Assembly: GCA_050014695.1 (NCBI GenBank)
Contig: JBEKCV010000006.1
Location: 6,708 to 70,707, forward strand
DNA from: Thermodesulfovibrionales bacterium
GTDB taxonomy: Bacteria; Nitrospirota; Thermodesulfovibrionia; Thermodesulfovibrionales; UBA9159
Length of the DNA: 64,000 nt
Direction: 5' to 3'
Shown: piece by piece, positions 16,686-31,957 of the stretch
How positions within the stretch are numbered: position 1 is the stretch's first letter
Layout of the letters: each line of letters opens with the position of its first letter
Made by a program: the position numbers and the translations under genes
The notes under the pieces: model-generated
The model's input: only the letters and a program-made list of their open reading frames with translations
Databases searched by the model: none
Told to the model about the DNA's origin: nothing

Positions 16686-18647
16686 TTACGTTGTCCCGTT
16701 CCCGGACTCACTCTTGACCTTTTCGAGAAGATCCACAATCTGCTGCGATACGCCGTTCATGTCTTTGTATATCTGCTCGGCCTTTGCCTGGTTCCCCGCG
16801 TTGTGTGCTGCGACAGCTTCCTTTGCAAGGCCATGTATCCTTTCGTGAGGCTGGTCAATGATACGATAACTGGGCAGGGCACCGCATATCGCCTTGCCCT
16901 CACTAAAGTACCACTTGCCGAATCTGCATGTACGGTGGTCGGGCAATGCTGACGGGTCAATGGTTACTTCACCTTTCAGGCACGCCCCGATCTTGCCTAT
17001 GAACAGACGGTGGTCATTTTTGGCTAAATCAAGGATGATCAATGAGGTCTCCCTGGTCTTGATTCCAGATGTATGCTGCCTCAATTCCTCTGCTATCTCT
17101 GTCAGCTTACGCACCTCTTGCACCACATCATCAGCCACGCCCTCCATACCCCTTGCTATCGCTGACGTCTTCTCGATATTCCCTGAGACCTCTTCTGCGG
17201 CCGCTGACTGTTCGTCGACCGCTGTGGCTATCTGGGTTATCTGGTCACGAACCTTCTGAACTTCCGTAACCATGGAATCAAGGGAGTTCCCCACATTCCG
17301 CATGTACTGAGTTGCCTTCGTAACTTCCTCTGATGCCCCACTCATCGACTTCATCGTCTCTTGTGATTCGGTCTGCACCGCTCCTATCTTCCCTGATATC
17401 TCCGTTGTTGCCTTTATCGTCCTCTCGGCGAGCTTTCTCACCTCGTCTGCTACAACGGCAAAGCCTCTACCCTGCTCTCCTGCCCTCGCTGCCTCAATCG
17501 CAGCATTGAGCGCGAGTAGGTTCGTCTGGTCTGCGATGTCCTTGATTACCGTTACGATGTCGCCTATCTCTCCGACACGGCTGTTCAGCTTCTCCACCAT
17601 CGAGGCGAGCTCTACCGTCGAAGTAAAAACCCTGTTTACGGTCTCAACCGCCCCATCAGCCACTTTCTTACCGCCTGCGGCTATCTCCATTGCTTCGACT
17701 GAGGTCTCCGCGGCGGAGGCTGCGTTTTTGGCTATATCCGTGATCGTCTGGCTCATCTCCTCGGCTGCCGTTGCTATCTGCGTTGCCTGACCCGCCTGGC
17801 TCTGGGCGTCCCTTGTTGTCTTGTCACCCGTGATCCGCAATGTTTCCATGACCGGTATGATTTTGCCGACCGTCACGGCTATGCCATTCAGCACGGTGCT
17901 AAATTTCTTCACAACTTTGTTTACATTGTCTGACACCATGCCCACTTCATCTTTGCCGTCATAGGGAAGAACAAAATCCATGTTTCCTTCTGCTGCTTCT
18001 TGCAGGCGGCCTGTTAACCGTATGAGGGGTCTTAATGTGATGCTGACAATCATTAGTGTAAACCCGGTCACAGCTATTATGCCGCCGATGCCCAATGCGC
18101 CATAGAGATACTGCAGAGACCGTATCCTGCCGAATGAATCTGTCAGCGGTATCCTGATGCTTATAGCACCCAGGACCTCTCCTGCCCTCACCTTATGGCA
18201 GGAAAGGCACTTTTCCCCCAGTGCGGCCCCCGGTTGCGCCACATAGGGATATACGCCACGGATGAACGAGCCTTCAAGCTGAACCTTCTCAGTCCCCCTT
18301 TGTATGACGTCTCTTTCGAGATCATCAGCAGGATAATCTTCGGTCTTACCTTTACCGTAGTCTCTGTCGAGGATGGGTGCCCGTATGATCCTGATATCGG
18401 CGACCTTTTTCATCTCTTCGAGGAAAGATTTTTCCGATTCCTTATAATTTTCGGTTGTCATCAACATGGTGAGGGAATTCAGGACTGTTTCCCGATATCC
18501 CTTGAGTGATGAGTTTTCGACCTCACCAAGTACAATTTCCTTTGTTTTACTCCCGGTAACAAAGATCGTGATCGCTATCCCAACTGTAACTAAAGCAATT
18601 ATCGGAAGTGCCGTTTTCCATTTTAGCGAGACGTCTTTGAACTTCAT
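16686..18647 (-). CDS. MCP with periplasmic c-type heme sensor, HAMP, signalling domain and C-terminal CZB domain
   Basis: Two TM helices flanking CLSCH (18195-18209), [21 protein letters not shown]-terminal DHRLF...CRFGKWY...HERIH. Confidence 0.93.
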
Positions 18648-18744: not shown

Positions 18745-19224
18745 TCAGTTATTCGTTGACAATGAAGTTACCGCGTGGAGACCATCATGCCCGAGGAGCT
18801 TATCGATATCAAGGAGTATTAAGAGCCTGTCTTCGAGTTTCCCCACCCCTCTTATGAACTCGGAGCCATCCCCACCCGTCATGGGCGGAGGCGGTTCAAC
18901 CGTATCTGATGGAAGTCTCAGGACTTCCGATACGGAATCGACAATGAGCCCGACGGTAGTACCCACATCAACGACCATGATCCTCGATTGCGCATCAGCA
19001 GCCTTTGTCTCCAGACCGAATTTCTTCCTCAGGTTTATCACGGGGATGACTTTCCCCCGCAGGTTGATAACGCCCTCCACGTACCCAGGGGTGTTCGGAA
19101 CAGCCGTTATATTCACCATCCGGTTGATCTCCTGGACCTTTAGGATGTCCGTGGCGTATTCTTCACCGCCCAGTTTGAAGGTCACCAGTTGCAATATCTC
19201 AGTACTGGCTGCCAATGCACTCAT
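18745..19224 (-). CDS. cheW: Chemotaxis coupling protein CheW
   Basis: LQLVTFKL, VEGVINLRGKVIPVI, GLIVDSVSEV; AAAGGAGG RBS before MSALAA. Confidence 0.95.
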   Translation of the reverse strand: MSALAASTEILQLVTFKLGGEEYATDILKVQEINRMVNITAVPNTPGYVEGVINLRGKVIPVINLRKKFGLETKAADAQSRIMVVDVGTTVGLIVDSVSEVLRLPSDTVEPPPPMTGGDGSEFIRGVGKLEDRLLILLDIDKLLGHDGLHAVTSLSTNN

Positions 19225-19270
19225 ATTTTCCTCCTTTGGAACACGTACCCACACTGAACCATATACACTC

Positions 19271-19305: not shown

Positions 19306-20355
19306 CTACACAGCATTGACCATCTCTCCCGCCATCTCTTCGATCGGAAGGATCTTGTCCGCTATGCCTGCATCCACCACCGCTTTTGGCATCCCATATA
19401 CAACGCAAGTCTCCTCGTTCTGGGCAAAAACCCGCCCGCCGTTCTTTTTCAGGGCGGCGAGTCCCTTCAGCCCGTCGTTTCCCATACCAGTCAGTATCAC
19501 GCCGAGGGCCCTGCCGGGAAAAAGTTCGGCCACTGAAAGCATCAGGGCATCCACCGACGGGCGGTAAACAAACTCTTCCTTGTTCGCGGAGATGCTGATT
19601 ACCGGTTCGATACCCCTCTTTCTTGACACCCTCATATGCCCGAACCCGGGGGCTATGAAGACGACTCCGGGTTTGAGCGGCTCTCCTTCTTCTGCCTCTT
19701 TCACTATGAGCTGACTGAGCTGATTGAGCCTGTCGGCGAAGGGACCAGTGAAGCTGGCGGGCATATGCTGAGCGATGACGATCGGAACGGGAAACTCCTT
19801 CGGCAGTTTTGGAATAATGTCCTGAAGCGCCCGGGGTCCACCCGTTGAAGTCCCTATGGATACGATCCCTATCCGTCTCTCGCCTGTTGTTCTGACAGGC
19901 ATGGATTGAGGAATCGCGACCGATCGTCTGTCTTCTTCTCTGATCCGTTTTCTTACCACCCCTTTCCGGCCGAGGTGTTTCACTTTATCAATCAATAGCT
20001 CTTTGAGTTTTACGATATTGATGGATAGGTCGGAGAGGTTCTTTGGAAGAAAATCAACAGCACCCATGTCGAGGGCGTCCAGCGTGACCTTTGCGCCGTC
20101 AGTGGTCAGAGAACTGACCATAATGACGGGGACCGGGTTCTTCGCCATAATTTGCTTCAAGGCTGTGATGCCGTCCATCCGCGGCATCTCGACGTCAAGG
20201 GTGACGATGTCGGGTTTCAAGGCTTGCACCTTTTCGATCGCCTCCAGGCCGTCCCGTGCCGTCCCCACAATGGTAATCTCGGGATCGGAGGAAAGCATGG
20301 CTGACAGTGCATTCCTCATGAATGCCGAGTCATCGACGATGAGAACCTTTACCAC
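19306..20355 (-). CDS. cheB: Chemotaxis methylesterase CheB
   Basis: REC domain plus GTSTGGP, QHMP, RPSVD, LTGMGNDG. Confidence 0.97.
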   Translation of the reverse strand: MVKVLIVDDSAFMRNALSAMLSSDPEITIVGTARDGLEAIEKVQALKPDIVTLDVEMPRMDGITALKQIMAKNPVPVIMVSSLTTDGAKVTLDALDMGAVDFLPKNLSDLSINIVKLKELLIDKVKHLGRKGVVRKRIREEDRRSVAIPQSMPVRTTGERRIGIVSIGTSTGGPRALQDIIPKLPKEFPVPIVIAQHMPASFTGPFADRLNQLSQLIVKEAEEGEPLKPGVVFIAPGFGHMRVSRKRGIEPVISISANKEEFVYRPSVDALMLSVAELFPGRALGVILTGMGNDGLKGLAALKKNGGRVFAQNEETCVVYGMPKAVVDAGIADKILPIEEMAGEMVNAV

Positions 20356-20635
20356 TATCGCACTCCTCCCTCATCCAAATCAATACGGGTTAAGATGGCG
20401 CTGAGACAGCCTCCGGTTCACTGCAAAGCTGCTTCGCTTTTTCCCTGCTCTCTGTGCTCTGTGCTGCAACTGCTTACATTCTTTCTATACGCTGTTGCCT
20501 TTGTAACCTTTCCTCATGCATCGCCCACGGATTTGGCCCGCTGCTCTGCTTCAGTTTGCACCGCTTCAATCCTCCCCGAAATCCTGGACGTTGGTTGCCT
20601 TCCGTTTCCGCCCTCAATCCGGCGGATATCCCGCT

Positions 20636-21832
20636 TTAAAACCCGAAGTCCTTCAGGAGGTCGTCCACATCAGCCTGAGACACCTCCTCAGGTGTTATCC
20701 TCTCGGTTTTTGCCCCTTGCTCTATCTTGACTCCAAATGAGGCTATCAGCCTTACGAGTTCCTCCTCTATTTCTCCGACCAGTTTTATGACCTTCTTTAT
20801 CGTCTGACCAGTCAGGTCCTGAAATGATTGTGTCGTGAGTATCTCAGTGAGATCGTCTTCGAGCCCGTTTTTGAAGGTCTTCAGATATGTTACAGACTCT
20901 TCGGGCTCCTTGATATTTCTGATATGCAAGGCAAGCTCATCCATCTTCAAAATGTGCCTCTCAACGATGCTCATGGTTCTGTTGGCCGCTTCCTCAGTCT
21001 TATCGATCACGAATTGAAGTCTGTCGACCGCGTTGGGCATCTCCGTGGTGGCTAACCCTTTCAGCTTTGGGTCGAGGGCCTCTTTAAAACTTCTGATCGA
21101 ATCATGGAGTTTTCGGGTAACCTTTCCGACCTCTCTGAAAAGGTCGCCCTGGCCCTTCTTCAGGATGTCATGGATCGCTCCGTCCGCGGCCTCATAATCC
21201 TGGATGGCAATGGCGTTCATAAAGTTAACGACGTCGTCAAATATGACGAACCGGGGGTCATCGCTGTTTACCCCCCTCTTTTCAAAAAACTTTTTTGCAT
21301 CCTGGAGTTCTCTCACTTCCATCTGCCCTGCCATGGTCTGGACTGTCTTCACGACCTCCACCGTGTCTCTGCTGCCCGTCTCTTTGACGTCCACGACGAC
21401 ATCTTCGAAAAGGCTCGCATCTTCCGACGGAATCAACTTTTTCGGGTCCAGGAGAACGACGAGCCTGTTGTCCACTTTTGCAACCCCTTCGACCTGCTCA
21501 ACATCTCCATGGAGAAATTGCTCTGGATGCTCCACCGCTGACTCATCAATGTTGATGACGCCGGTAATCCCGTCCACGAGTATGCCGAAGGTAATCCTCC
21601 CGCTGGCAACCACAATGATTTTACTCCCCTTGCTTCCGTTGTCACCGATGTTTACCAGTTTCTTGAGATTGATGATGGGGATAACGGAGCCCCTCAGATT
21701 GGTGACCCCTTCAATATACGCGGGCGCTTGAGGCATCCTGGTTATGACAGGCATCGTGACGATCTCACGAACCTTGAGTATGGGTATGGTATATTCACCG
21801 TCATTGAGATGAAATCCGATATATTGTTGCAT
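20636..21832 (-). CDS. CheW-CheZ fusion protein
   Basis: aa ~1-135 CheW fold (IEGVTNLRGSVIPII, FGILVDGI); aa ~230-398 CheZ (EVGKVTRKLHD, TEEAANRTM, QSFQDLTGQ, C-terminal SQADVDDLLKDFGF). Confidence 0.9.
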   Translation of the reverse strand: MQQYIGFHLNDGEYTIPILKVREIVTMPVITRMPQAPAYIEGVTNLRGSVIPIINLKKLVNIGDNGSKGSKIIVVASGRITFGILVDGITGVINIDESAVEHPEQFLHGDVEQVEGVAKVDNRLVVLLDPKKLIPSEDASLFEDVVVDVKETGSRDTVEVVKTVQTMAGQMEVRELQDAKKFFEKRGVNSDDPRFVIFDDVVNFMNAIAIQDYEAADGAIHDILKKGQGDLFREVGKVTRKLHDSIRSFKEALDPKLKGLATTEMPNAVDRLQFVIDKTEEAANRTMSIVERHILKMDELALHIRNIKEPEESVTYLKTFKNGLEDDLTEILTTQSFQDLTGQTIKKVIKLVGEIEEELVRLIASFGVKIEQGAKTERITPEEVSQADVDDLLKDFGF

Positions 21833-21841
21833 GGCTCCTCC

Positions 21842-23611
21842 TTATCTCTTTTTTATCAGCCCCGTGATACCCCGAGCTATGCTCGGCAGGTCGAGGATAA
21901 GCACAACCTTTCCGTCGCCGGTTATTGTCGCCCCGAGGATATGTGATGAGGCGGTGTCTATTCCGTCAACAGGCTTGATGACCACCTCTTCCTGACCCAA
22001 CAACTCATCGACGGCGAGACAGAATTTACTGTCCCCGATGGAAATGACAATGGCATACCTGTCCTCCGCACGCAGCGAGCCATTGTTTCCGAGGATTCCG
22101 GATAGCTCAAAGAACGGATGAATTCTCTCTCTGATAACGAGAACACCCTGGCCCACAATATCGGAGATATCCTTTCTCGAGACCCGCAAGGTTTCCTCAA
22201 TGGGCGCAAGCGGTATAGCGTATTGCGAGCCATCCGCGCGCACCATAAGGGCCTGGATGATCGCCAAAGTGAGGGGAATGCTTATCCTGAATGTCGAGCC
22301 GGCATCTTTTCTTGACATCACCTCAACGTAGCCGTTGAGTTTGGAGATATTTGTCTTGACCACGTCCATGCCTACCCCGCGGCCGCTGAGTTCGGTCGCC
22401 ACGTCGACCGTCGAAAACCCGGGCAGGAAGATAAGGTTTACCGCAGCCTCTTCCGTCATCCGCTGGGCCTCTTCGCCTGTTATCAACTTTTTTTCCAGTG
22501 CTTTTCTCTTGACCCTGTCGACGTCTATACCCTTACCGTCGTCAGCGACCTCGATCACGATCTGATTGCCTTTCTGGTAAGCGCGGATGGAAATCGTGCC
22601 CTTGGTGGGCTTGCCTTTTGCCCGTCTCGCCTCGACCGATTCGAGGCCGTGATCTATGGCGTTCCGTATGATATGCACCATGGGGTCACCGATCTGCTCG
22701 ATCACGGACTTATCGACCTCCGTGTCCTCGCCTGATATCAGAAGTTCCACCTCTTTACCGAGAGAGCCAGCGATGTCCCTGACGAGGCGGGGGAACTTGC
22801 TGAAGACCTTCTTTATGGGCTGCATCCGCATCCGCATGACAGCCAGCTGCATGTCCGAAGTGACCAGGTCGAGGAAGGCAACGGTATCGAGAAGGCTCTC
22901 CACGTAAGCATCATCGGAATATTTCGTTTCGAGGTAATTTACGATATTTAAAAGCCTGTTGCGGACGAGGACGACCTCTCCGGTCAGGTTCATAACATTA
23001 TCAATCCTGTTGATGTCAACCCTGAGCGTCTGCATCTCGTCCTTTTTTTCAGGAACGGCTTTGTCGCCCTGCTCCACAGACCTCGATGAGGCGGCGGCCT
23101 CCTTTGCTTCGGCACCCCCATCCCGGGGAGGAGGCGTCTGACTGCTGGAGCCTTGTTCCTGCCCGGCATTGTCAACGATGGCCGCAGGAACAACGCCGCA
23201 TTGAACTTCGCCGCCGGCCTGTTCCGCAGCACTGAGCGTTTCGCCGAGTTCTTTGAGCAGGGGAGCGGTATTCACCTCTCCGTGCTCCTTCTTCTTTACC
23301 TGCTCAATCAGGAATCTGAGCATATCCACACTTTTGAGGATGACGTCCATGATCCGCTTTGAGAGGGGTATCTCGTTTTCTCTGAGCTTCTTCATGATAT
23401 TCTCGGCGCCGTGGGCAACATCTACAATGGACTGGAAACCGAGGAAGCCCGCCGCTCCTTTGAGGGTGTGCATACTCCTGAATATGTCATTGATCATGTC
23501 TTTGTCATATCCTCTCGACTCGAGTTCGACAAAAAGCGGATCTATCCTGTCAAGGGACTCTACGGCCTCCGTGATGAAGTCTGTTATGATTTCTTCCATT
23601 TCATCGGGCAT
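21842..23611 (-). CDS. cheA: Chemotaxis histidine kinase CheA
   Basis: Hpt FRSMHTLKG, HIIRNAIDHG, DDGKG, SGRGVGMDVV, C-terminal CheW domain. Confidence 0.97.
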   Translation of the reverse strand: MPDEMEEIITDFITEAVESLDRIDPLFVELESRGYDKDMINDIFRSMHTLKGAAGFLGFQSIVDVAHGAENIMKKLRENEIPLSKRIMDVILKSVDMLRFLIEQVKKKEHGEVNTAPLLKELGETLSAAEQAGGEVQCGVVPAAIVDNAGQEQGSSSQTPPPRDGGAEAKEAAASSRSVEQGDKAVPEKKDEMQTLRVDINRIDNVMNLTGEVVLVRNRLLNIVNYLETKYSDDAYVESLLDTVAFLDLVTSDMQLAVMRMRMQPIKKVFSKFPRLVRDIAGSLGKEVELLISGEDTEVDKSVIEQIGDPMVHIIRNAIDHGLESVEARRAKGKPTKGTISIRAYQKGNQIVIEVADDGKGIDVDRVKRKALEKKLITGEEAQRMTEEAAVNLIFLPGFSTVDVATELSGRGVGMDVVKTNISKLNGYVEVMSRKDAGSTFRISIPLTLAIIQALMVRADGSQYAIPLAPIEETLRVSRKDISDIVGQGVLVIRERIHPFFELSGILGNNGSLRAEDRYAIVISIGDSKFCLAVDELLGQEEVVIKPVDGIDTASSHILGATITGDGKVVLILDLPSIARGITGLIKKR

Positions 23612-23621
23612 ATGAGTACCT

Positions 23622-24011
23622 TTATTTCCCCATTTTCTCGAAGATCTTGTCCATCTTTTCCTTCAAAACCTCCGCGGTAAATGGCTTCACGATATAATTG
23701 TTCACCCCTGATTTAATGGCCTCGATCACCTTTTCCTTCTCAGCCTCAGCCGTGACCATCAGAAACGGAATGTCCTTCAACGCCGGATCACTCCTCACCT
23801 TCCTCAGTAACTCGATTCCATCCATATTCGGCATATTCCAGTCCGATACGACGAATCCGAACCCCCCGTTTTGCAGTTTTGAATATGCCTGGACCCCGTC
23901 TTCCGCCTCTTCTATGTTCTCAAAGCCGAGCTGCTTCAGTATATTCTTGACGATCCTTCTCATGGTCGAAAAGTCATCAATAACGAGAATCTTCATTTTA
24001 TAATCTGGCAT
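23622..24011 (-). CDS. cheY: Chemotaxis response regulator CheY
   Basis: [23 protein letters not shown]; start MPDYK after GGAGG. Confidence 0.95.
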
Positions 24012-24396
24012 CAGAGACACCTCCTTCACCAAAGAAATTCTTTAGGATATCCTTTATATTCTGAGTGACCATATCGGCCGTCACCGGTTTTATGACGTAT
24101 CCGTCGGCACCGGCAGTCAAGGCCCGCTCCCGCTCCTCCGGATCCGCCTCCGTTGTGACCATGAGAATAGGAATACTTGTATAGTTTGGGTCAGCCTTGA
24201 GGTTTTTTATAAGTTCGATGCCATCCATGTACGGCATGTTCAGATCGGTTACTATCATATTGACCTTGCTCGTTGCGAGCTTTTCCAGGGCGTCGAGACC
24301 GTTTTCGGCAGAAACTATCTCGAACCCCTTGGTTTTCAGATAGATCCCAAGCAGTTTCCTCGTTGTCAGACAATCATCTACGATCATGATCTTCAT
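23998..24396 (-). CDS. Second single-domain CheY-like response regulator
   Basis: VDD, TDLNMP, VTTE, YVIKP; inside the che operon. Confidence 0.9.
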
Positions 24397-24400
24397 GGCA

Positions 24401-25216
24401 TCAACTCCTCTGGTACACTACCACGCCGTTGATAATGGCGGGCTTAAACGCCCGCGTAACGTTATGAAGGCTCTCGGCGCAGCCAATGAAGAGAAATCCC
24501 CCGGGTCTCAGGCTGTCATACAGCAGGGACGTCACCCTCTGCTTTGCCTTGGCATCGAAGTAGATGAGGACATTGCGGCAGAAGATGACATCCAGATCCC
24601 GCAACGACTTCATTTTTCTTTCATCCATGAGATTCACGTTCATAAATTTGACCGAGTTCTTTACGGACGGGTCAAGCTCGTAGGACTGTCCGTTTGCCTT
24701 GAAATATTTCCTGAGATACGGTTCGGGCACATTCCTCACCGAATATGAGCCATACACGGCTCTCTTTGCGGATTCCAGAACCCCGTCGCTGATATCCGAC
24801 GCAAACATCTCTTTTCTGACTGCCATTTTTCTTTCCATGAGGAGCATGCTGAGGGTGTAAGGTTCCTCCCCCGTCGAGCATGCCGCAGACCAGAGTCGGA
24901 TGCCTCTTGCTCCGTTTCCTTTCAGCACCTCGGATACGATAGCATCGATAAAGACATCAAACTGCTGCGGCTCCCTAAAAAAAAATGTTTCATTGGTCGT
25001 TATTGCATCATAGAGTTTTGCCAGCTCGCCACCGCCGCCATTATACCGTATGAGATATAAGTAATCCTCAAAGCCGTTCAGATTCTTCTCCTGAACCCTC
25101 TTTATGAGTCTGCTTTCGAGAAGGTATTTCTTGACATCAGGGATATAGATGCCGGTCCGTTCGTAGACGAAGTCCCGCAATTGCTTGAATGTGGAGTCCT
25201 GAAGTTCGATATTCAC
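24401..25216 (-). CDS. cheR: Chemotaxis methyltransferase CheR
   Basis: TTNETFFFRE, WSAACSTGEEPY, IFCRNVLIYF. Confidence 0.97.
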   Translation of the reverse strand: MNIELQDSTFKQLRDFVYERTGIYIPDVKKYLLESRLIKRVQEKNLNGFEDYLYLIRYNGGGGELAKLYDAITTNETFFFREPQQFDVFIDAIVSEVLKGNGARGIRLWSAACSTGEEPYTLSMLLMERKMAVRKEMFASDISDGVLESAKRAVYGSYSVRNVPEPYLRKYFKANGQSYELDPSVKNSVKFMNVNLMDERKMKSLRDLDVIFCRNVLIYFDAKAKQRVTSLLYDSLRPGGFLFIGCAESLHNVTRAFKPAIINGVVVYQRS

Positions 25217-25253: not shown

Positions 25254-27125
25254 TCATCCGAAAGTCCCGGAAGATTTCATGTCCTCAAGCTCTGTGTGCG
25301 CCTTCTTCCGCACGCCTTCGTCGGGGTGGCCTGTCAGGGCATCTAAGATACTCACCACCTCGCTGCCCCCGATCCGGGATACGGCACCAATGGCGGAGAG
25401 GACCACGGGAATATCTCTGTCATCAAGCATCGGAATGAGCACCTTCAGGGTATCCTGTCCCATCGAGCTTCCCAATGCATTTACCGCGCACATCCGCACC
25501 CACATATCGGGATCATGGAGGGCCGATTTTATTACATCATGACAGCAGCCGAGTTCCCCCATCGCTTTGATCGCAACCTTCCTCACCTCCGCTTCAGGAT
25601 CACGAACCGCCTCGGTGAGTGTCTGGCACACCCTTGCATCCCGAGTCCTGCCGAGTCCCGCTACGGCAGACACCCTGACGGTAAAGTCCCTATCGCCGAT
25701 GAGGGCGAGAAGGGTAGCAGCATCCTCCGTAAACCGAGCGATGGCCTCCCTCACCGAGACGTCAAATTCAGCGAGGCACGGAATCACTGCTGAAGAATCG
25801 ATCGACAGGAGTGCCTTCACCCCTTCTTCCATGACGTCTTTGTACCGTTCTGCCGGCAGCAGTTTGCGTATGGGCTCAAATGATGCTTTATCGGCTATTC
25901 GGCCCAATGCGGTGAAAGCCATCCGTCTGATATGTCCATCATAGTCGTCGATAGCATCCACGAGCGTCCGCCTGATATCCCCGTCATCGATATCAACAAG
26001 GGCCTTCATGCTGGCCCGCCTCACATCCCTCACTTCCCCTTCTAATAAACCGACAAGATACGGGACGGCTTCCTTGCATTTCAACTCCCCGATTGCCTCG
26101 ATCGCTATACTTTTTCCACGGTATTTCAGGGACAGATTATCGAAAACCGCAGCCAGGATTTCTCTGCATCCAAAGCTCCGCAAAGCGTCTTTCATGACCT
26201 GCACCTTCTCATCTGTTTCCGGCTCTGAGGGATCCAGGGAACCAGCGTAGTCAATGATGGACACAATGGCCCTCTTCTCCTGTAATGCAACGAAACCTTT
26301 CACGGCAATCTGCTTCTCATTCCAATCACCGTCGGCAAACATTTCCCTGAGCTCTTCCGCGACCTCCGCCCAGGGAGGGGTGACCCCACCCTGGACAAGA
26401 CTTTTTACCGTTGCGGTCCTTTCAAATCCCGTAGCCCCAGGCAGGTGGCTAAGGAGAACATCGAGCGCCTGTGGCGTCCCAATCCTTCCAAGGGTCTCCA
26501 CGGCCGCGATTCTCAAAGCATCAGATGGGCTCTTCAGCAGTGAACTCACGGCCTCAGTCGACGACGCTTCCTTGAGCAGCGCAAGGGCTTCAAGAACGGA
26601 GAAACAGACCCACTCATCATCATTCAATGCCTTCATCAGCTGCGCCACCGCGCCCCCGAATTGCAGAATACCAACGGCCTTTGCCGCGGACGCCCGAACA
26701 TTGGGATTTGGATCTCTTTCGAGAACACGAAGTATTGCCTCCGGATAATCACAGTGTTTAATGTCACAGATGAGGTCGAGCGCAAACTTGCGGACATCGG
26801 GGTCCGGATCCTTGATGAGGGAATGAAGCAAAGGGACAACCGGAACTCCTATCTCCTTCAAGATGATCATCGCGGTATTTCTCAGGAAGGAGTCCTGTCT
26901 CAGGAGCGGGAGCACCATGTAAGCGGTGACCTCGCCCCCGAGGGCAATAAGAGAACGCATGGCAGCGTCTTGGACGCCGGAGTTTTCATCCCTTAACGCC
27001 CTGATCAGGGGATAGATCGCCCTTTCGTCCCCACCCGACAATGCATCCGCTGCCGACCTCCTCTTGGATGCATCAGGGTGAGCCAGATCCTGGGTCAGCC
27101 GTAAGAGTTTCTTCGCTTGTATCAT
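25254..27125 (-). CDS. HEAT/PBS-lyase repeat protein heading the che operon
   Basis: Many DxDxxVRxxAxxAL repeats. Confidence 0.9.
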   Translation of the reverse strand: MIQAKKLLRLTQDLAHPDASKRRSAADALSGGDERAIYPLIRALRDENSGVQDAAMRSLIALGGEVTAYMVLPLLRQDSFLRNTAMIILKEIGVPVVPLLHSLIKDPDPDVRKFALDLICDIKHCDYPEAILRVLERDPNPNVRASAAKAVGILQFGGAVAQLMKALNDDEWVCFSVLEALALLKEASSTEAVSSLLKSPSDALRIAAVETLGRIGTPQALDVLLSHLPGATGFERTATVKSLVQGGVTPPWAEVAEELREMFADGDWNEKQIAVKGFVALQEKRAIVSIIDYAGSLDPSEPETDEKVQVMKDALRSFGCREILAAVFDNLSLKYRGKSIAIEAIGELKCKEAVPYLVGLLEGEVRDVRRASMKALVDIDDGDIRRTLVDAIDDYDGHIRRMAFTALGRIADKASFEPIRKLLPAERYKDVMEEGVKALLSIDSSAVIPCLAEFDVSVREAIARFTEDAATLLALIGDRDFTVRVSAVAGLGRTRDARVCQTLTEAVRDPEAEVRKVAIKAMGELGCCHDVIKSALHDPDMWVRMCAVNALGSSMGQDTLKVLIPMLDDRDIPVVLSAIGAVSRIGGSEVVSILDALTGHPDEGVRKKAHTELEDMKSSGTFG

Positions 27126-27242: not shown

Positions 27243-27974
27243 TTACAGGTCGATCTGCATCTTCAGCTTTAAGAGGGCTTGGTTATGGAGCTGTGACACT
27301 CTCCCCTCGGTCAGGTTCAGGACCTTGCCGATTTCCTTCATGGTCATCTCATCCCAATAATACAGGGAGAGGATCATCTTCTCCTTTTTGGGAAGCGTTT
27401 CGATCAGCTGTGCAATGGCCTCTTTTCTCCTGTTATTCTCATAGATTTCAAGGGGGGTCTTCGCGTCGGGGTCCGATATGCACTCTGTAACATCGATGCC
27501 GCTCTCTTCACTTCTCTCACTGAAGTCCTCGAATCTTACCGATACTTGCGCGTTTGCACTCTGCAGAATCCGATAGTACTCATCGAGCGGCATCTGAAGT
27601 CTCTCAGCAACCTCCGTATCATCCGGTGAGCGGCCGAGTTCCCTTTCCAATGTACGGTGCGCCGCCTTGACCGTATCGATTTTCTTCTTCACCGATTTTG
27701 GGAGCCACTCATTTGCCCTCAGCTCATCGAGCATCGCGCCCCTTATCCTGTGCTCCACAAAGGTATTGAGTTTGACCCCGTTTTCTTTAAATCTGCCGAG
27801 GGCATCCAAGAGGCCCATGACTCCGACGCTGACGAGATCCTGTATGGTGAGTTGCGGAGGCAGTCTCCATGCCAGCCGGCTGGCCGTATACTTGATGAAA
27901 GGGAGAGAATCGTTGATGATCTGCTCCTTTGCTTCCTCACTCAGTTTTTCCATATACCCGATCATTTCCTTCAC
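27243..27974 (-). CDS. fliA: Flagellar sigma factor FliA (sigma-28)
   Basis: RIRGAMLDELR, ELGRSP, TMKEIGKVLNLTEGRVSQLH; follows flhG. Confidence 0.95.
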   Translation of the reverse strand: MKEMIGYMEKLSEEAKEQIINDSLPFIKYTASRLAWRLPPQLTIQDLVSVGVMGLLDALGRFKENGVKLNTFVEHRIRGAMLDELRANEWLPKSVKKKIDTVKAAHRTLERELGRSPDDTEVAERLQMPLDEYYRILQSANAQVSVRFEDFSERSEESGIDVTECISDPDAKTPLEIYENNRRKEAIAQLIETLPKKEKMILSLYYWDEMTMKEIGKVLNLTEGRVSQLHNQALLKLKMQIDL

Positions 27975-27985
27975 CTTCCGCCTTT

Positions 27986-28816
27986 TTAGGAGCCTGATGC
28001 CGACAGGAGATTCCCGATAAAAAACTGCAACGTTCCCTTGACCTTCTCCGTCGTCTCTAAAACCTTTGATGCGATTTCCGCAACCTGTTTCGATGCAAGG
28101 CCATGGGGATACGCATCGATAAAGGCTTGCTGAGAACTCACCGCCTTGCGCACCGCGTCATCATAGGGTATATATCCAAGATAATTGAGGGATATGTTCA
28201 AGAATTTTTCGGCGGCGAGCGAAAGCCTTCTGAAAACTTCCAGCGCCTCTCCGGAACCACTTACCGAATTGACCAGGACGTTGAATTCCTTCTCCTGATA
28301 GCGGGTAAAAAGAACCTTGATGAGGGCATAGGCATCCGTGATCGCTGTCGGTTCAGGTGATGTCACAACAATGATCTGCTGTGCCGCGATGCAAAAAAAC
28401 GCTACATTCTCCGATATCCCCGCGGCTGTATCGATGAGCAGGACATCGATGTTTTCCTCATACGTGTCAAATGCCTCGAGTATCCGCAGCCTCTGAAACT
28501 CATCGAGGGACGTTAACTCCTGCACCCCTGAACTGGCGGGGAGTATCTTTATCCCATGAGGACCTTCAACGACCACATCCTTGAGTCCCATCTCGCCGCT
28601 GAGGAGATTCTGGATGTTATGTTTCGGGGCAAGATGAAGAAGAACGTCGATGTTGCTAAGCCCGAGGTCAGCATCGAGGATCATGACATCCTTGCCCAGT
28701 TTCCTCAACGCTATTGCCATGTTCGCTACGACGTTGGTCTTTCCGACACCGCCTTTGCCGCTCGCCACGGCGATCGTCTTCACGTAATTCCTCTTGTCCC
28801 GTTTTTCCTTCAGCAT
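27986..28816 (-). CDS. flhG: MinD-like flagellar ATPase FlhG/FleN
   Basis: SGKGGVGKT, DADLGLSNID, PEPTAITDAYALIK. Confidence 0.93.
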   Translation of the reverse strand: MLKEKRDKRNYVKTIAVASGKGGVGKTNVVANMAIALRKLGKDVMILDADLGLSNIDVLLHLAPKHNIQNLLSGEMGLKDVVVEGPHGIKILPASSGVQELTSLDEFQRLRILEAFDTYEENIDVLLIDTAAGISENVAFFCIAAQQIIVVTSPEPTAITDAYALIKVLFTRYQEKEFNVLVNSVSGSGEALEVFRRLSLAAEKFLNISLNYLGYIPYDDAVRKAVSSQQAFIDAYPHGLASKQVAEIASKVLETTEKVKGTLQFFIGNLLSASGS

Positions 28817-29931
28817 CGGAAATGCCCTTTCTTGAGTATCAGATTTGCGAGGTTGGTTTTACTTATAAATTCTATATCGTCAGGGACCGTCTGGCCGGTG
28901 GTGACATAGGCCACAGGCTTCTGATAGATGAGCATGAGGTTATACAGTGAGCCGAATCTCACCGCCTCATCAACCTTGGTAAAGGCTATCGAATCTATGG
29001 GCAGTCTTCTGTAGAATCTGTACGAATCAATCATGAATTCATCATCAGCATTCGCATTCATAAGGAGATGCAGTTCCAGGGGAAAACCTGATGTCTCGCC
29101 CTGGTCGGAGGAGCCCTGGGAAATATCGAGGAGTTCGTTGATATATGTCTCATCCCTCGGGCTTCTCCCTGAGGTATCAATAAAAACGATGTCCCTGGCC
29201 CGTGCAAAACTGCCGAGACTGCGCCTGAGTTCCGCGGCACTGGAGACAACCGACAAGGGGATGCCCAGGATCCTTGCATAAATCCTCGTCTGTTCGACCG
29301 CTCCGATCCTGTACGTGTCGAGATTGATGACAGCGACCTTCTTCCCCGCCCGTATTGCCCCTGCGGAGAGTTTGGCAATCGTCGTCGTCTTCCCCACGCC
29401 TGTCGGGCCAACAAGCATTACGGCCTTTCTGCCGTAGCTCCTTTCCTTCACGGTTATATCGGATGACAGCAGTGAGGGGATCTCATCTACGTCCCTCGCT
29501 TTTTCACAGATGCGGAGGGCAAACTCATCCCTCACCGAGCGCTCCCTCAGAAAGTTCAGTATCATCTTCTTTTTTGCCGGCAGAGATATCTCATAGCCGT
29601 TATTCCTCATCCCTTCGATGGCCTCTCGGAGCTTTCCGATCTCTTTTTTTATCTCATCCGTCACGATGGCCGGATCGGTGGGATTAAGCGTCCGAGGATT
29701 CGGAAACTCCATCGGATCGGGAACGCCAGGTTTCCCCGCGTCCGTGACCATCTGCCCACCGGCACCCTTGGCTCCCGCATGGTCATAGTCCACAGCCGCG
29801 GTCACCTCTACCCACGGCCTCAGTCCCTTTCCTTCTTCGGTGGAGAGGATAACTGCGTCCTCGCTCAGTTCCTTTTTTACGAGTTCGAGGGCCTCGGTAA
29901 AGTTTCTCGCCTTATATTTCTTAATCTTCAT
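28810..29931 (-). CDS. flhF: SRP-family GTPase FlhF
   Basis: GPTGVGKTTTIAKL, DTYRIGA, DTSGRS, TKVDE, TTGQTVPDD. Confidence 0.95.
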   Translation of the reverse strand: MKIKKYKARNFTEALELVKKELSEDAVILSTEEGKGLRPWVEVTAAVDYDHAGAKGAGGQMVTDAGKPGVPDPMEFPNPRTLNPTDPAIVTDEIKKEIGKLREAIEGMRNNGYEISLPAKKKMILNFLRERSVRDEFALRICEKARDVDEIPSLLSSDITVKERSYGRKAVMLVGPTGVGKTTTIAKLSAGAIRAGKKVAVINLDTYRIGAVEQTRIYARILGIPLSVVSSAAELRRSLGSFARARDIVFIDTSGRSPRDETYINELLDISQGSSDQGETSGFPLELHLLMNANADDEFMIDSYRFYRRLPIDSIAFTKVDEAVRFGSLYNLMLIYQKPVAYVTTGQTVPDDIEFISKTNLANLILKKGHFRC

Positions 29932-31957
29932 ATCTCACCACCCCTGTTGTGTAGAGTTTTACTGATGGAGCTATCTCGGCATTTGAGAGGATAACCACCG
30001 ATGGGAGGAATCTCTCTGTGATTTTCCTGAGGAATCTCCTCACCTGAGTGGAGCAAAGGATAATCGGCTGTGCGTTTTTCACGTTATCCGAGGAGATGGC
30101 ACCCTCAAGCGACCGTATCAACGCGCTCACCATATCAGGGCTTATGGCGCCACCGCCTTCGATTGCCTGCAAAAGGGCCACTTCGAATCTCGGATCAAGG
30201 GTCAAGACATGGACGGACCCATCAGGGACAAGATACTGTTTCGTAATAACCCTCGCCAGCGCCTGTCGCACATGTTCTGTCAGCAACTCCGTGTCCTTTG
30301 TTGACGGAGCATAGTCCAGCAACGTCTCAAGTATCCTCACCAGGTCGTTGATGGGGACTTTTTCTCTCAGAAGGCTCTGCAGCACCCGTTGAACACCTCC
30401 CAGTGTCATCTGAGTCGGGATGAGTTCATCAACGATCTTTGGATAGCTCTTTGAGACATTCTCCAGCAAGCCCTGAACCTCTGTCCGGGTGAGGAGCTCC
30501 CATGCATGGCTCTTTATTAACTCGGTAAGATGGGTGGCGATTACGGTGGCCGGGTCGACGACCATATATCCGAGGGAGCGTGCCTTCTCCACACTGTTTT
30601 CACCGATCCAATATGCCGGAAGTCCGAATGCCGGTTCCTTGGTTGGAGTTCCGCCAATTTTTTCCGTCGCCCCTGACGAGACGGCCAGGTACTGACCCAG
30701 GGCAACCTCGCCCCCCCCTACCTCTATTCCCCGTATGAGAAAACTATATTCGTGCGGCCTGAGCTGCAAGTTGTCCTTGATATGGATGGAAGGAACAACG
30801 AATCCGAGTTCAGAGGCGAGTTGCCTCCTCATCGCCTTGATCTTGCTGAGGAGGTCAGCCTTGTCAGACTCCACAAGGGGAATAAGACCGTATCCGATCT
30901 CGAAGGTCAGGGGCTCTATCTCCATGAAGGTCTCAACGGCCGGTTCCTGCGGTGCCGCTGCCCCTCCCGCCTGTTCCTTTACCTCTTCCTCAGGGGTTTT
31001 TGAGACAACATAGGCCAGCGCTCCCGAGGCAGCCGAGAGCAGGAAGAAAGGGAGATGGGGAAGTCCCGGCACAAGGCCGAGGACGACCATAACGCCTGAG
31101 GCGGTGCCGAGGGCCTTCGGATTGACAAGTAGTTGCTTGGCGATATCATTTCCGAGATCCCTTTCGGTTCCCGCACGGGTCACCACGAGACCTGCGGCAG
31201 TGGAGATGAGGAGGGCAGGAATCTGGGAGACAAGGCCGTCACCTATGGTTAAGATGGTATACGTTTTTGCCGCCTCCGCGATTGGCATACCGTGTTGGAA
31301 TATTCCGATGATAAACCCGCCGATGATATTAATCCCTGTTATGATGAGTCCCGCAATGGCATCTCCCCTCACGAATTTGCTCGCGCCGTCCATTGCGCCG
31401 TAGAAATCGGACTCCTGAGAAATAACCAACCTTCTTCTCCTAGCCTCTGATTCATCGACAAGACCCGCGTTCAGGTCAGCGTCTATCGCCATCTGCTTGC
31501 CGGGCATGGCATCAAGGGTGAACCGGGCTGCGACTTCCGCTATTCTTCCGGAGCCCTTGGTGATGACCATAAAGTTGATAACGACCAGGATGAGGAATAC
31601 GGTAAACCCCACAGCATAGTTCCCGCCCACGACGAAGTTGCCAAAGGATTTTATGACCTGTCCTGCCGCGTCCGTACCCTCGCCGCCCCTGAGCAGTACC
31701 AATCTCGTTGCCGCAATATTCAGCGAAAGCCTGTAGAGGGTTGTTAGGAGGAGCATCGCCGGGAACACGGAAAAATCGAGGGGCTTCTTAATATAGATGC
31801 CCGTTATGAGAATGACTATCGAGAGGGAAATGGACAGGGACAGAAGGACATCCAGGATGAAGGGAGGGATGGGGAGCATCATGACGCCTAAGATAGACAC
31901 GACACAGACCGCGACCACAACGTCCCCCCTCTGTTTTATCTGTTGCAGGAAATTCAT
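29921..31957 (-). CDS. flhA: Flagellar export protein FlhA
   Basis: RIAEVAARFTLDAMPGKQMAIDADL, FYGAMDGASKFVRGD. Confidence 0.98.
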   Translation of the reverse strand: MNFLQQIKQRGDVVVAVCVVSILGVMMLPIPPFILDVLLSLSISLSIVILITGIYIKKPLDFSVFPAMLLLTTLYRLSLNIAATRLVLLRGGEGTDAAGQVIKSFGNFVVGGNYAVGFTVFLILVVINFMVITKGSGRIAEVAARFTLDAMPGKQMAIDADLNAGLVDESEARRRRLVISQESDFYGAMDGASKFVRGDAIAGLIITGINIIGGFIIGIFQHGMPIAEAAKTYTILTIGDGLVSQIPALLISTAAGLVVTRAGTERDLGNDIAKQLLVNPKALGTASGVMVVLGLVPGLPHLPFFLLSAASGALAYVVSKTPEEEVKEQAGGAAAPQEPAVETFMEIEPLTFEIGYGLIPLVESDKADLLSKIKAMRRQLASELGFVVPSIHIKDNLQLRPHEYSFLIRGIEVGGGEVALGQYLAVSSGATEKIGGTPTKEPAFGLPAYWIGENSVEKARSLGYMVVDPATVIATHLTELIKSHAWELLTRTEVQGLLENVSKSYPKIVDELIPTQMTLGGVQRVLQSLLREKVPINDLVRILETLLDYAPSTKDTELLTEHVRQALARVITKQYLVPDGSVHVLTLDPRFEVALLQAIEGGGAISPDMVSALIRSLEGAISSDNVKNAQPIILCSTQVRRFLRKITERFLPSVVILSNAEIAPSVKLYTTGVVRYED

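Follow-up and report, generated by a model that had tools for sequence, protein, structure and literature searches.

A CheW-CheZ fusion gene in a flagellum-linked chemotaxis operon of a Thermodesulfovibrionales bacterium and its distribution in Nitrospirota

The window analysed here, a stretch of 64,000 nucleotides from contig JBEKCV010000006.1 of an uncultured Thermodesulfovibrionales bacterium from peat (phylum Nitrospirota, assembly GCA_050014695.1), contains on its minus strand a gene in which the chemotaxis adaptor CheW and the chemotaxis phosphatase CheZ are joined in a single reading frame. It could be confirmed that this CheW-CheZ fusion is one genuine gene, and much of the phylum keeps the two domains in one frame. 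The protein appears to be a catalogued variant of known chemotaxis components that has apparently not been studied experimentally, and we think that its CheW domain probably places the phosphatase in the baseplate formed by chemoreceptors and CheA. The gene and its parts are as follows.

20636..21832, minus strand: cheW-cheZ fusion gene, 398 residues plus stop; a single open frame with Pfam matches to CheW and CheZ and with metagenome contigs across the linker
21835..21843, minus strand: ribosome-binding site AAGGAGGAG, overlapping the cheA stop codon (21842-21844) and ending 2 nucleotides before the fusion ATG; read directly
21425..21826, minus strand: CheW-like domain, residues 3-136 (PF01584, E 3.5e-35)
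21257..21424, minus strand: linker, residues 137-192; the acidic C-terminal helix of CheW, then a variable segment with a semi-conserved VEVxK...GG..VKE
21146..21256, minus strand: helical N-terminal extension of the CheZ module, residues 193-229 (model helices 193-209 and 213-252)
20639..21145, minus strand: CheZ domain, residues 230-398 (PF04344, E 1.6e-34); modelled as a helical hairpin, flexible tail and C-terminal helix
20804..20818, minus strand: catalytic motif D339-L-T-G-Q343 within FQDLTGQ, aligning to D143/Q147 of E. coli CheZ via 1kmi
20639..20680, minus strand: C-terminal peptide, residues 385-398, a putative helix for binding of phosphorylated CheY (CheY~P); the Pfam match extends to the last model position (203/203)

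As read from the window sequence, the open reading frame starts with an ATG 9 bp past the stop codon of cheA, is preceded by a strong ribosome-binding site, and has zero internal stops. The original prediction, which was made from the DNA letters alone, had described an uninterrupted frame of 398 residues at exactly these coordinates and had given no strand. The stretch is contained in 24 public runs, nearly all of them peat metagenomes, and the frame was checked in contigs from three runs (X7, X8 and X9), none of which is flagged as a possible source of the assembly. These independent contigs span 20500-21505 (X7), 20500-21551 (X8) and 20527-21490 (X9), that is, residues from about 94-115 to the stop, and they bridge the end of CheW, the linker and CheZ without a single insertion or deletion and with no more than one mismatch. 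A stop or frameshift in the linker, named beforehand as refuting the fusion, was found in none of them. In addition, a contig of 169 nucleotides from a metatranscriptome run (X23) is identical to 20715-20883; because DNA can occur in RNA libraries, this is at most a weak hint that the gene is expressed.

An artefact, either a chimeric assembly or a sequencing error that deleted a stop codon between separate cheW and cheZ genes, could be suspected in a source genome that is a metagenome-type assembly of 175 contigs. Also, in a related metagenome-assembled genome (MAG) the CheW and CheZ halves lie in different frames (L041:3001-4187), with a frame change near residues 131-137; this is due to a sequencing error, or else the gene is naturally split there. 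We reject the artefact, whose likelihood we regard as negligible, since the three sets of independent contigs cross the linker without any insertion or deletion and since the fused frame is present in 92 of the 401 genomes of the phylum sample, single-contig genomes included, and both domains are found in all 120 database homologues that were listed.

In a collection of 5.8 billion proteins, 812 match the fusion protein at E <=0.001. Among the matches listed, PF01584 and PF04344 are found together in 120 of 120; these proteins are 62-100% identical and 380-416 residues long, and where a source names them, the name reads "protein phosphatase CheZ" or "chemotaxis signal transduction protein/CheZ" with an assignment to Nitrospirota or Thermodesulfovibrionales. 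A survey of 401 genomes from the phylum of the window gave 94 matches spanning both halves in at least 92 genomes, with identities down to 34% and two copies each in genomes G322 and G268. Any CheZ at all is present in 209 of the 401 sampled genomes, and among the CheZ-bearing ones the fused form is found in 66 of 67 from the order of the window, in 7 of 8 from the rest of its class, and in 17 of 17 from a further family, f25. The fused loci are labelled Thermodesulfovibrionales, Nitrospirae or Nitrospirota, Dissulfurispiraceae, Thermodesulfovibrio sp. and Candidatus Magnetomicrobium, and two MAGs with a fused locus are labelled Deltaproteobacteria.

The count of 92 genomes is a lower bound, because family f24, which had been scored as CheW-only, carries a much more divergent CheW-CheZ fusion. 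It was found in all four f24 loci that were fetched (L113:1819-2997, L114:1517-2845, L115:2020-3231 on the minus strand and L116:1648-3000), with lengths of 392-450 residues, and it is missed by the full-length protein query. The CheZ proteins of the two loci fetched from family f30 possess an extra N-terminal region of about 160 residues. In one of them (L118:2022-3065, minus strand, 347 residues) this N-terminus gives a CheW match below threshold, with 22.6 bits against a cut-off of 23.5, and in the other (L119:2039-3130, minus strand, 363 residues) the long N-terminus has no detectable CheW; judged from these sequences, the region may be a decayed CheW domain. Family f29 and others possess an ordinary unfused CheZ of 198-279 residues.

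The architecture also defines two clusters of the ESM Atlas, with 100 and 140 members, of which 100% have CheW and 96-98% have CheZ; Nitrospirota is the phylum most often represented in them. In a library of 1.84 billion representatives, about 11 of the best 150 representatives match the fusion end to end, and most others of these 150 are proteins of 470-770 residues in which the CheW half is matched several times. Among the 80 best loci of the scan that supplied the labels given above, the fused type accounts for 26, comprising 24 with both domains in one open reading frame, the one with the frame change (L041) and one in which only CheZ is present (L047); stand-alone CheZ genes, mostly of named Gammaproteobacteria, make up the remaining 54. 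The CheZ of L047 (L047:1565-2335) has 256 residues, lacks CheW and is 61% identical, and it is encoded on a 4.8-kb contig labelled Methylococcaceae. Another stand-alone CheZ without CheW, of 269 residues, is found in a "delta proteobacterium" MAG (L063:2857-3666). In trees, both fall among the window-type fused CheZ halves, a pattern that may represent domain loss or gene transfer.

For the CheZ half, the PF04344 match reaches 120.1 bits against a cut-off of 30.7, with residues 230-310 on model positions 2-79 and residues of about 320-398 on positions 111-203 of 203. In a sequence search of the PDB, E. coli CheZ (1kmi) was found with E 9.6e-12 for the whole protein and E 2.3e-12 for the CheZ half alone. 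Conservation was evaluated in an alignment of 22 fused homologues with 31-75% identity to the window protein. Here, Q335, Q338, D339 and G342 are invariant, and the catalytic Q343 is kept in at least 90%. The best-conserved segment of the protein is the C-terminal peptide (majority fraction 0.78, with Q386, L393 and G397 invariant), followed by the C-terminal arm of CheZ (0.74), its N-terminal arm (0.67) and the CheW domain (0.63), and much lower values were obtained for residues 367-384 (0.47) and for residues 148-157 of the linker (0.39). Conservation is thus concentrated in CheW, the CheZ arms and the C-terminal peptide, and variation in the linker and the tail. The full CheZ with its DxxxQ motif and C-terminal peptide, as described originally, is therefore backed by the family match and the 1kmi alignment, and the peptide SQADVDDLLKDFGF is present exactly as it had been quoted.

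The full-length AlphaFold model has a mean predicted local distance difference test score (pLDDT) of 64.1 and a predicted template modelling score (pTM) of 0.37, with the CheW fold at pLDDT ~80. As a monomer, the CheZ module is modelled with helices at 193-209, 213-252, 255-305 and 310-366, the latter two at pLDDT ~60-75; the tail at 362-385 falls below 50, and a helix at 386-395 follows. According to the 1kmi alignment, the hairpin of E. coli CheZ has about 21 residues more at its tip. This shortening in the fusion is seen only in the subgroup of the window, and for the fused proteins of L016, L017 and L019 the CheZ model is matched over its whole length.

It could be asked whether the CheZ half is no longer a phosphatase and merely binds or sequesters CheY~P. 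Such derivatives seem to exist in the family, as the second copy in genome G322 has an arginine in place of the catalytic glutamine. This paralogous CheW-CheZ (L022:5045-6229, minus strand) is 45% identical and remote from che genes, carries the motif FQDITGR, and has a long branch in the trees of CheZ; it may be a derivative without catalytic activity. The window protein, however, retains both D339 and Q343, the four positions named above are invariant in the homologues, and the fusion is the sole CheZ match of its genome (4.69 Mb, 175 contigs, 99.81% complete), so that a non-catalytic role of the CheZ half is highly improbable for this protein.

The CheW half likewise matches its family as a whole domain, with 121.1 bits against a cut-off of 23.5 and over model positions 1-136 of 138, and the PDB search returned 2qdl with E 4.4e-22 and E. 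coli CheW (2ho9) with E 7.4e-21. In the model, the domain has a pLDDT of ~80-90. V21, E23, I24, G42, R47 and G83 are invariant in the fused homologues. By alignment with 2ho9, residues V36/E38/I39/G57/R62/G63/G99 of E. coli CheW correspond to V21/E23/I24/G42/R47/G48/G83 of the fusion, and all seven positions, G48 included, are invariant or kept in at least 90%. In E. coli CheW, these residues (the E38/R62 pair, G57, G63, G99, V36 and I39) have roles in coupling to receptors and CheA. That the CheW domain is complete, as first described, is thus supported by both the match and the core residues.

A quick tree was made of 45 CheW domains, and the fused domains of the window type group together in it, with a value of 93 in the Shimodaira-Hasegawa-like approximate likelihood ratio test (SH-aLRT). 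This group is sister to a clade of the stand-alone CheWs of the operons together with the f24 fused domains, and its branch lengths are similar to those of the operon stand-alone CheWs. As the fused domains form their own group with such branch lengths, they are evidently maintained and not decaying, and from these sequences the fused CheW can be regarded as a maintained paralogue of the system's own CheW. A stand-alone CheW of 160 residues beside cheA in genome G262 (L018:8361-8843) nests within the fused CheW clade; it may have been released from a fusion, or it may have been the donor to one.

Between the two domains, the original prediction had placed a linker of about 95 residues. A joining region does exist, but only about 45-55 of its residues are variable and the rest is a helical extension of the CheZ module, because residues ~194-229 align with long gammaproteobacterial CheZ proteins and are modelled as helix. 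Alignments with gammaproteobacterial stand-alone CheZ begin at about residues 194-231 of the fusion. The variable linker proper comprises residues ~148-192, insertions in the homologues are concentrated at 137-177, and residues 144-178 have a pLDDT below 50 in the full-length model. In a separate model of residues 1-195 (pLDDT 74.8), strands were predicted at 145-151, 157-166 and 169-178, with pLDDT 46-66. The semi-conserved VEVxK...GG..VKE segment coincides with this three-strand beta element (21299-21400, residues 145-178), which was predicted twice, at low confidence, and which is missing from the most divergent relatives, L015 and L016.

How the two activities could work together is suggested by this architecture and by its genetic surroundings. 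The CheZ halves would dimerise as E. coli CheZ does, and the two CheW heads of the dimer would occupy CheW sites in the rings of CheA-P5 and CheW in the receptor baseplate. With the heads in the baseplate, the phosphatase would act beside CheA, so that CheY~P made by CheA would be dephosphorylated next to its source. The fusion would thereby be a covalent substitute for the recruitment of CheZ through CheA-short in E. coli, and ordinary coupling would be left to the other cheW of the operon. We consider this array tethering the probable role of the fusion. As originally described, the gene lies between cheA and cheB, with cheA upstream and cheB downstream, and the genes that encode the presumed partners are listed here.

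16686..18647, minus strand: chemoreceptor, a methyl-accepting chemotaxis protein (MCP) with HAMP, MCP signalling and C-terminal CZB zinc-binding domains (Pfam)
18745..19254, minus strand: stand-alone cheW, from the first GTG (Pfam CheW, E 5.2e-42), in a clade distinct from the fused CheW domains
19306..20355, minus strand: cheB (Pfam)
21842..23611, minus strand: cheA, with Hpt, dimerisation, ATPase and P5/CheW-like domains (Pfam)
23622-24032 and 23998-24396, minus strand: two single-domain cheY genes, candidate substrates (Response_reg, E 1.2e-29 and 4.5e-28)
24401-25216, minus strand: cheR (Pfam)

The ordinary cheW that had been placed at 18745-19224 does exist, but the first GTG extends it to 19254 and the start at 19224 lies inside the frame.

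An operon that likewise holds cheA, cheB, two cheY and cheR was found in five of eight relatives whose loci were annotated. In L025 and L029 the order is the same as in the window (cheY gene or genes, cheA, fusion, cheB). In L017 and L019 the fusion precedes cheA, the order being HEAT-repeat gene, cheR, cheY, cheY, fusion, cheA, cheB and cheW. L023 possesses the order cheY, cheY, cheA, an unidentified gene, an MCP gene, fusion, cheW and cheB.

A structure prediction with CheA P5, which the original prediction had proposed as a check, was also made. For the fused CheW (residues 1-140) with P5 of the adjacent CheA (residues 448-589), the predicted complex has a median score of 0.42 against 0.01 for the best control, which is graded as weak support. 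The mark used is reached by 58 of 80 solved complexes and by 2 of 110 mismatched pairs, and with scores of 0.60 or lower by only 7 of the 80 solved complexes and by both of the passing mismatches. At least 92% of contacts are shared between the runs, and the partner pLDDT is at least 80. As CheW:P5 complexes have already been solved, the pass may reflect likeness to known complexes.

Several observations weigh against array tethering. The support from complex prediction is this weak score for a textbook pair, and the full-length model has a low overall confidence and is uninformative on the relative placement of the two halves. In L015, L016 and L022 the fusion gene stands alone, away from cheA. 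The genome contains two CheX/CheC-like genes away from the che cluster, and CheW domains were matched 14 times in it, in five cases within a frame of CheA size, so other phosphatases and pathways exist. In L029, from a genome of about 2 Mb, no separate cheW was found within the fetched cluster, and the fused domain might therefore itself be the coupling protein there. Finally, since the shortened hairpin tip is found only in the subgroup of the window, it cannot be read as a general loss of the surface that binds CheA-short; this idea was dropped, as other fused subgroups match the full CheZ model.

In a rival view, for which the case of L029 speaks, the fused CheW would by itself be a complete coupling adaptor that kinase control and array assembly require, like CheV in other bacteria, and CheZ would be joined to it mainly for a 1:1 stoichiometry and co-expression with the scaffold and not for localisation. 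The invariant core residues and the close relationship of the fused lineage to the stand-alone CheW of the operons fit this view as well. A separate conserved cheW is, however, kept beside the fusion in the window operon and in L017, L019, L021, L023, L024 and L026, which argues for a division of labour. We consider a full coupling adaptor unlikely, but it is the main alternative to array tethering, with which it partly overlaps and which it does not exclude.

A further proposal holds that the protein is a dimeric, two-headed adaptor, in which the four-helix bundle of CheZ would hold two CheW domains in neighbouring rings of the baseplate, and in which a change of ring geometry caused by the receptors would alter access to the phosphatase or its activity, with the beta element of the linker perhaps relaying the change. 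This would amount to a push-pull control of CheY~P, and we regard it as quite doubtful.

The genome also leaves room for specialised adaptors, with its roughly five CheA-sized and eight other CheW-domain frames, and the solitary fusion genes, of which that of L015 adjoins fliC-flaG-fliD, would be in line with a CheW domain that acts outside arrays. There it could be a ligand of free CheA-P5 or of a particular receptor, tuning the kinase output or serving one receptor class. The fused domain is, however, indistinguishable from canonical CheW at conserved positions, and the gene follows directly after cheA in a flagellum-linked operon, which makes a function outside arrays very unlikely. Array tethering remains the role that we favour.

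Whether the fusion arose once or repeatedly was addressed with trees of the CheZ half. These trees are unrooted, L120 was excluded from the later ones for its long branch, and the gammaproteobacterial rows are 12 that were picked by hand from the 54 stand-alone loci. Long branches divide the window-type fused and gammaproteobacterial CheZ from the f24 fused, f30 and stand-alone Nitrospirota CheZ, and none of 200 bootstrap trees unites all fused rows in one clade. A single clade of all 27 fused rows is nevertheless not rejected by the approximately unbiased (AU) test (p-AU 0.892). By 37.8 log-likelihood units, the constrained tree even surpasses the free tree, for which the careful search was unconverged and left one row on a branch of 4.57. 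As the AU test does not reject the single clade and the free search did not converge, one versus several fusion events is not decided by these trees. A conclusion that the fusion arose twice, which the quick trees would suggest by placing f24 with stand-alone Nitrospirota CheZ, was accordingly dropped, as the AU test allows a single clade.

Upstream of cheR, the che cluster begins with a HEAT-repeat gene and is preceded by flhA, flhF, flhG-like and fliA-like genes.

25254-27125, minus strand: HEAT-repeat protein, 623 residues, at the head of the che cluster and downstream of fliA (Pfam)
27243-27974, minus strand: fliA-like sigma factor (Pfam)
27986-28816, minus strand: flhG-like ATPase (Pfam)
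28810-29931, minus strand: flhF (Pfam)
29921-31957, minus strand: flhA (Pfam)

Given the several CheA-sized frames and the CheX/CheC-like genes, the cluster in the window is the flagellum-linked system among several chemosensory systems of this bacterium. A HEAT/PBS-lyase-repeat protein of about 620 residues is also encoded directly upstream of cheR in three relatives (L017:8017-9870, L019:1575-3428 and L029:12-1664), and this HEAT-cheR arrangement is kept in relatives that are only 40-60% identical in the fusion protein. In the otherwise tightly packed operon, a purine-rich spacer of 280 nucleotides (20356-20635) separates the stop of the fusion from the start of cheB; a terminator-like site was looked for in this spacer and none was found, and the region holds only a plus-strand open reading frame (20395-20730) that is taken as spurious. 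In CheA, a CheY-binding P2 domain between the Hpt and dimerisation domains (residues 99-193) was not detected by Pfam at E <=0.01, and this gap of about 95 residues may be a divergent P2 domain or only a linker.

The co-localisation of the kinase and the phosphatase of CheY presumably matters for an even supply of the signal to the flagellar motors, and in E. coli it relies on CheA-short as an indirect link. A lineage with a covalent bond between its phosphatase and an array adaptor offers a natural experiment on the value of such co-localisation, and from the fusion one would expect a common site of action for CheW and CheZ. If the two-headed adaptor were realized, receptors would regulate the kinase and the phosphatase together, and not the kinase alone. 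As the fusion is common in Thermodesulfovibrio-type and magnetotactic Nitrospirota, it also bears on the navigation of environmentally abundant anaerobes.

The architecture itself has been noted before. Vass, Bourret and Foster (bioRxiv 10.1101/2022.05.07.491035) list CheW-CheZ in one sentence among rare CheW-domain fusions; it fell below their analysis thresholds, and the accessible part of the preprint gives no distribution, context or function for it. In the literature searched, which did not extend to subscription-journal papers and bioRxiv supplements, no characterisation of any CheW-CheZ fusion protein turned up, in agreement with the original prediction, whose authoring model knew of none. 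The novelty that it implied is nevertheless too strong a claim for the architecture as such, which is common in Nitrospirota and was already listed in that preprint.

Among known systems, three comparisons are instructive. The first concerns CheV and the way in which a CheW domain can be extended. CheV consists of a CheW domain and a receiver domain and serves as an array adaptor alongside ordinary CheW. The fusion resembles it in joining an array adaptor domain to a module that handles phosphoryl groups, and in the presence of an ordinary CheW as well. It differs in that the appended module is a CheZ phosphatase and not a receiver domain; a search of the fusion protein for Response_reg by Pfam at E <=0.01 gave no match, and a CheV-like protein was for this reason rejected as an explanation. 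The fusion thereby extends the idea embodied in CheV, namely that array adaptors are able to carry modules that terminate the signal.

E. coli CheZ (1KMI) shares with the fusion the PF04344 family, the catalytic D/Q pair, the helical hairpin (predicted in the fusion), the flexible tail and the conserved C-terminal peptide. It is reportedly recruited to receptor clusters through CheA-short (Cantwell et al. 2003), so that the presumed outcome, a phosphatase beside the kinase, would be alike in both. In contrast to E. coli CheZ, the fusion possesses a covalent CheW domain, the hairpin tip that is shorter by about 21 residues, and, ahead of the Pfam match, an additional helical stretch of about 35 residues like that in the long CheZ of the Vibrio/Shewanella type.

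Compared with unfused CheZ proteins in general, the nearest relatives of the CheZ half outside the phylum are those of Gammaproteobacteria (Vibrio, Photobacterium, Aeromonas and Shewanella), which are 31-43% identical from about residues 194-231 of the fusion to residue 398, whereas they comprise 239-261 residues in total and lack a CheW domain. The stand-alone CheZ proteins of the same phylum (f29, f26 and others) belong to the same family, but they are unfused, have 198-279 residues, and are distant from the CheZ half of the fusion (phmmer E 1e-8 to 1e-14).

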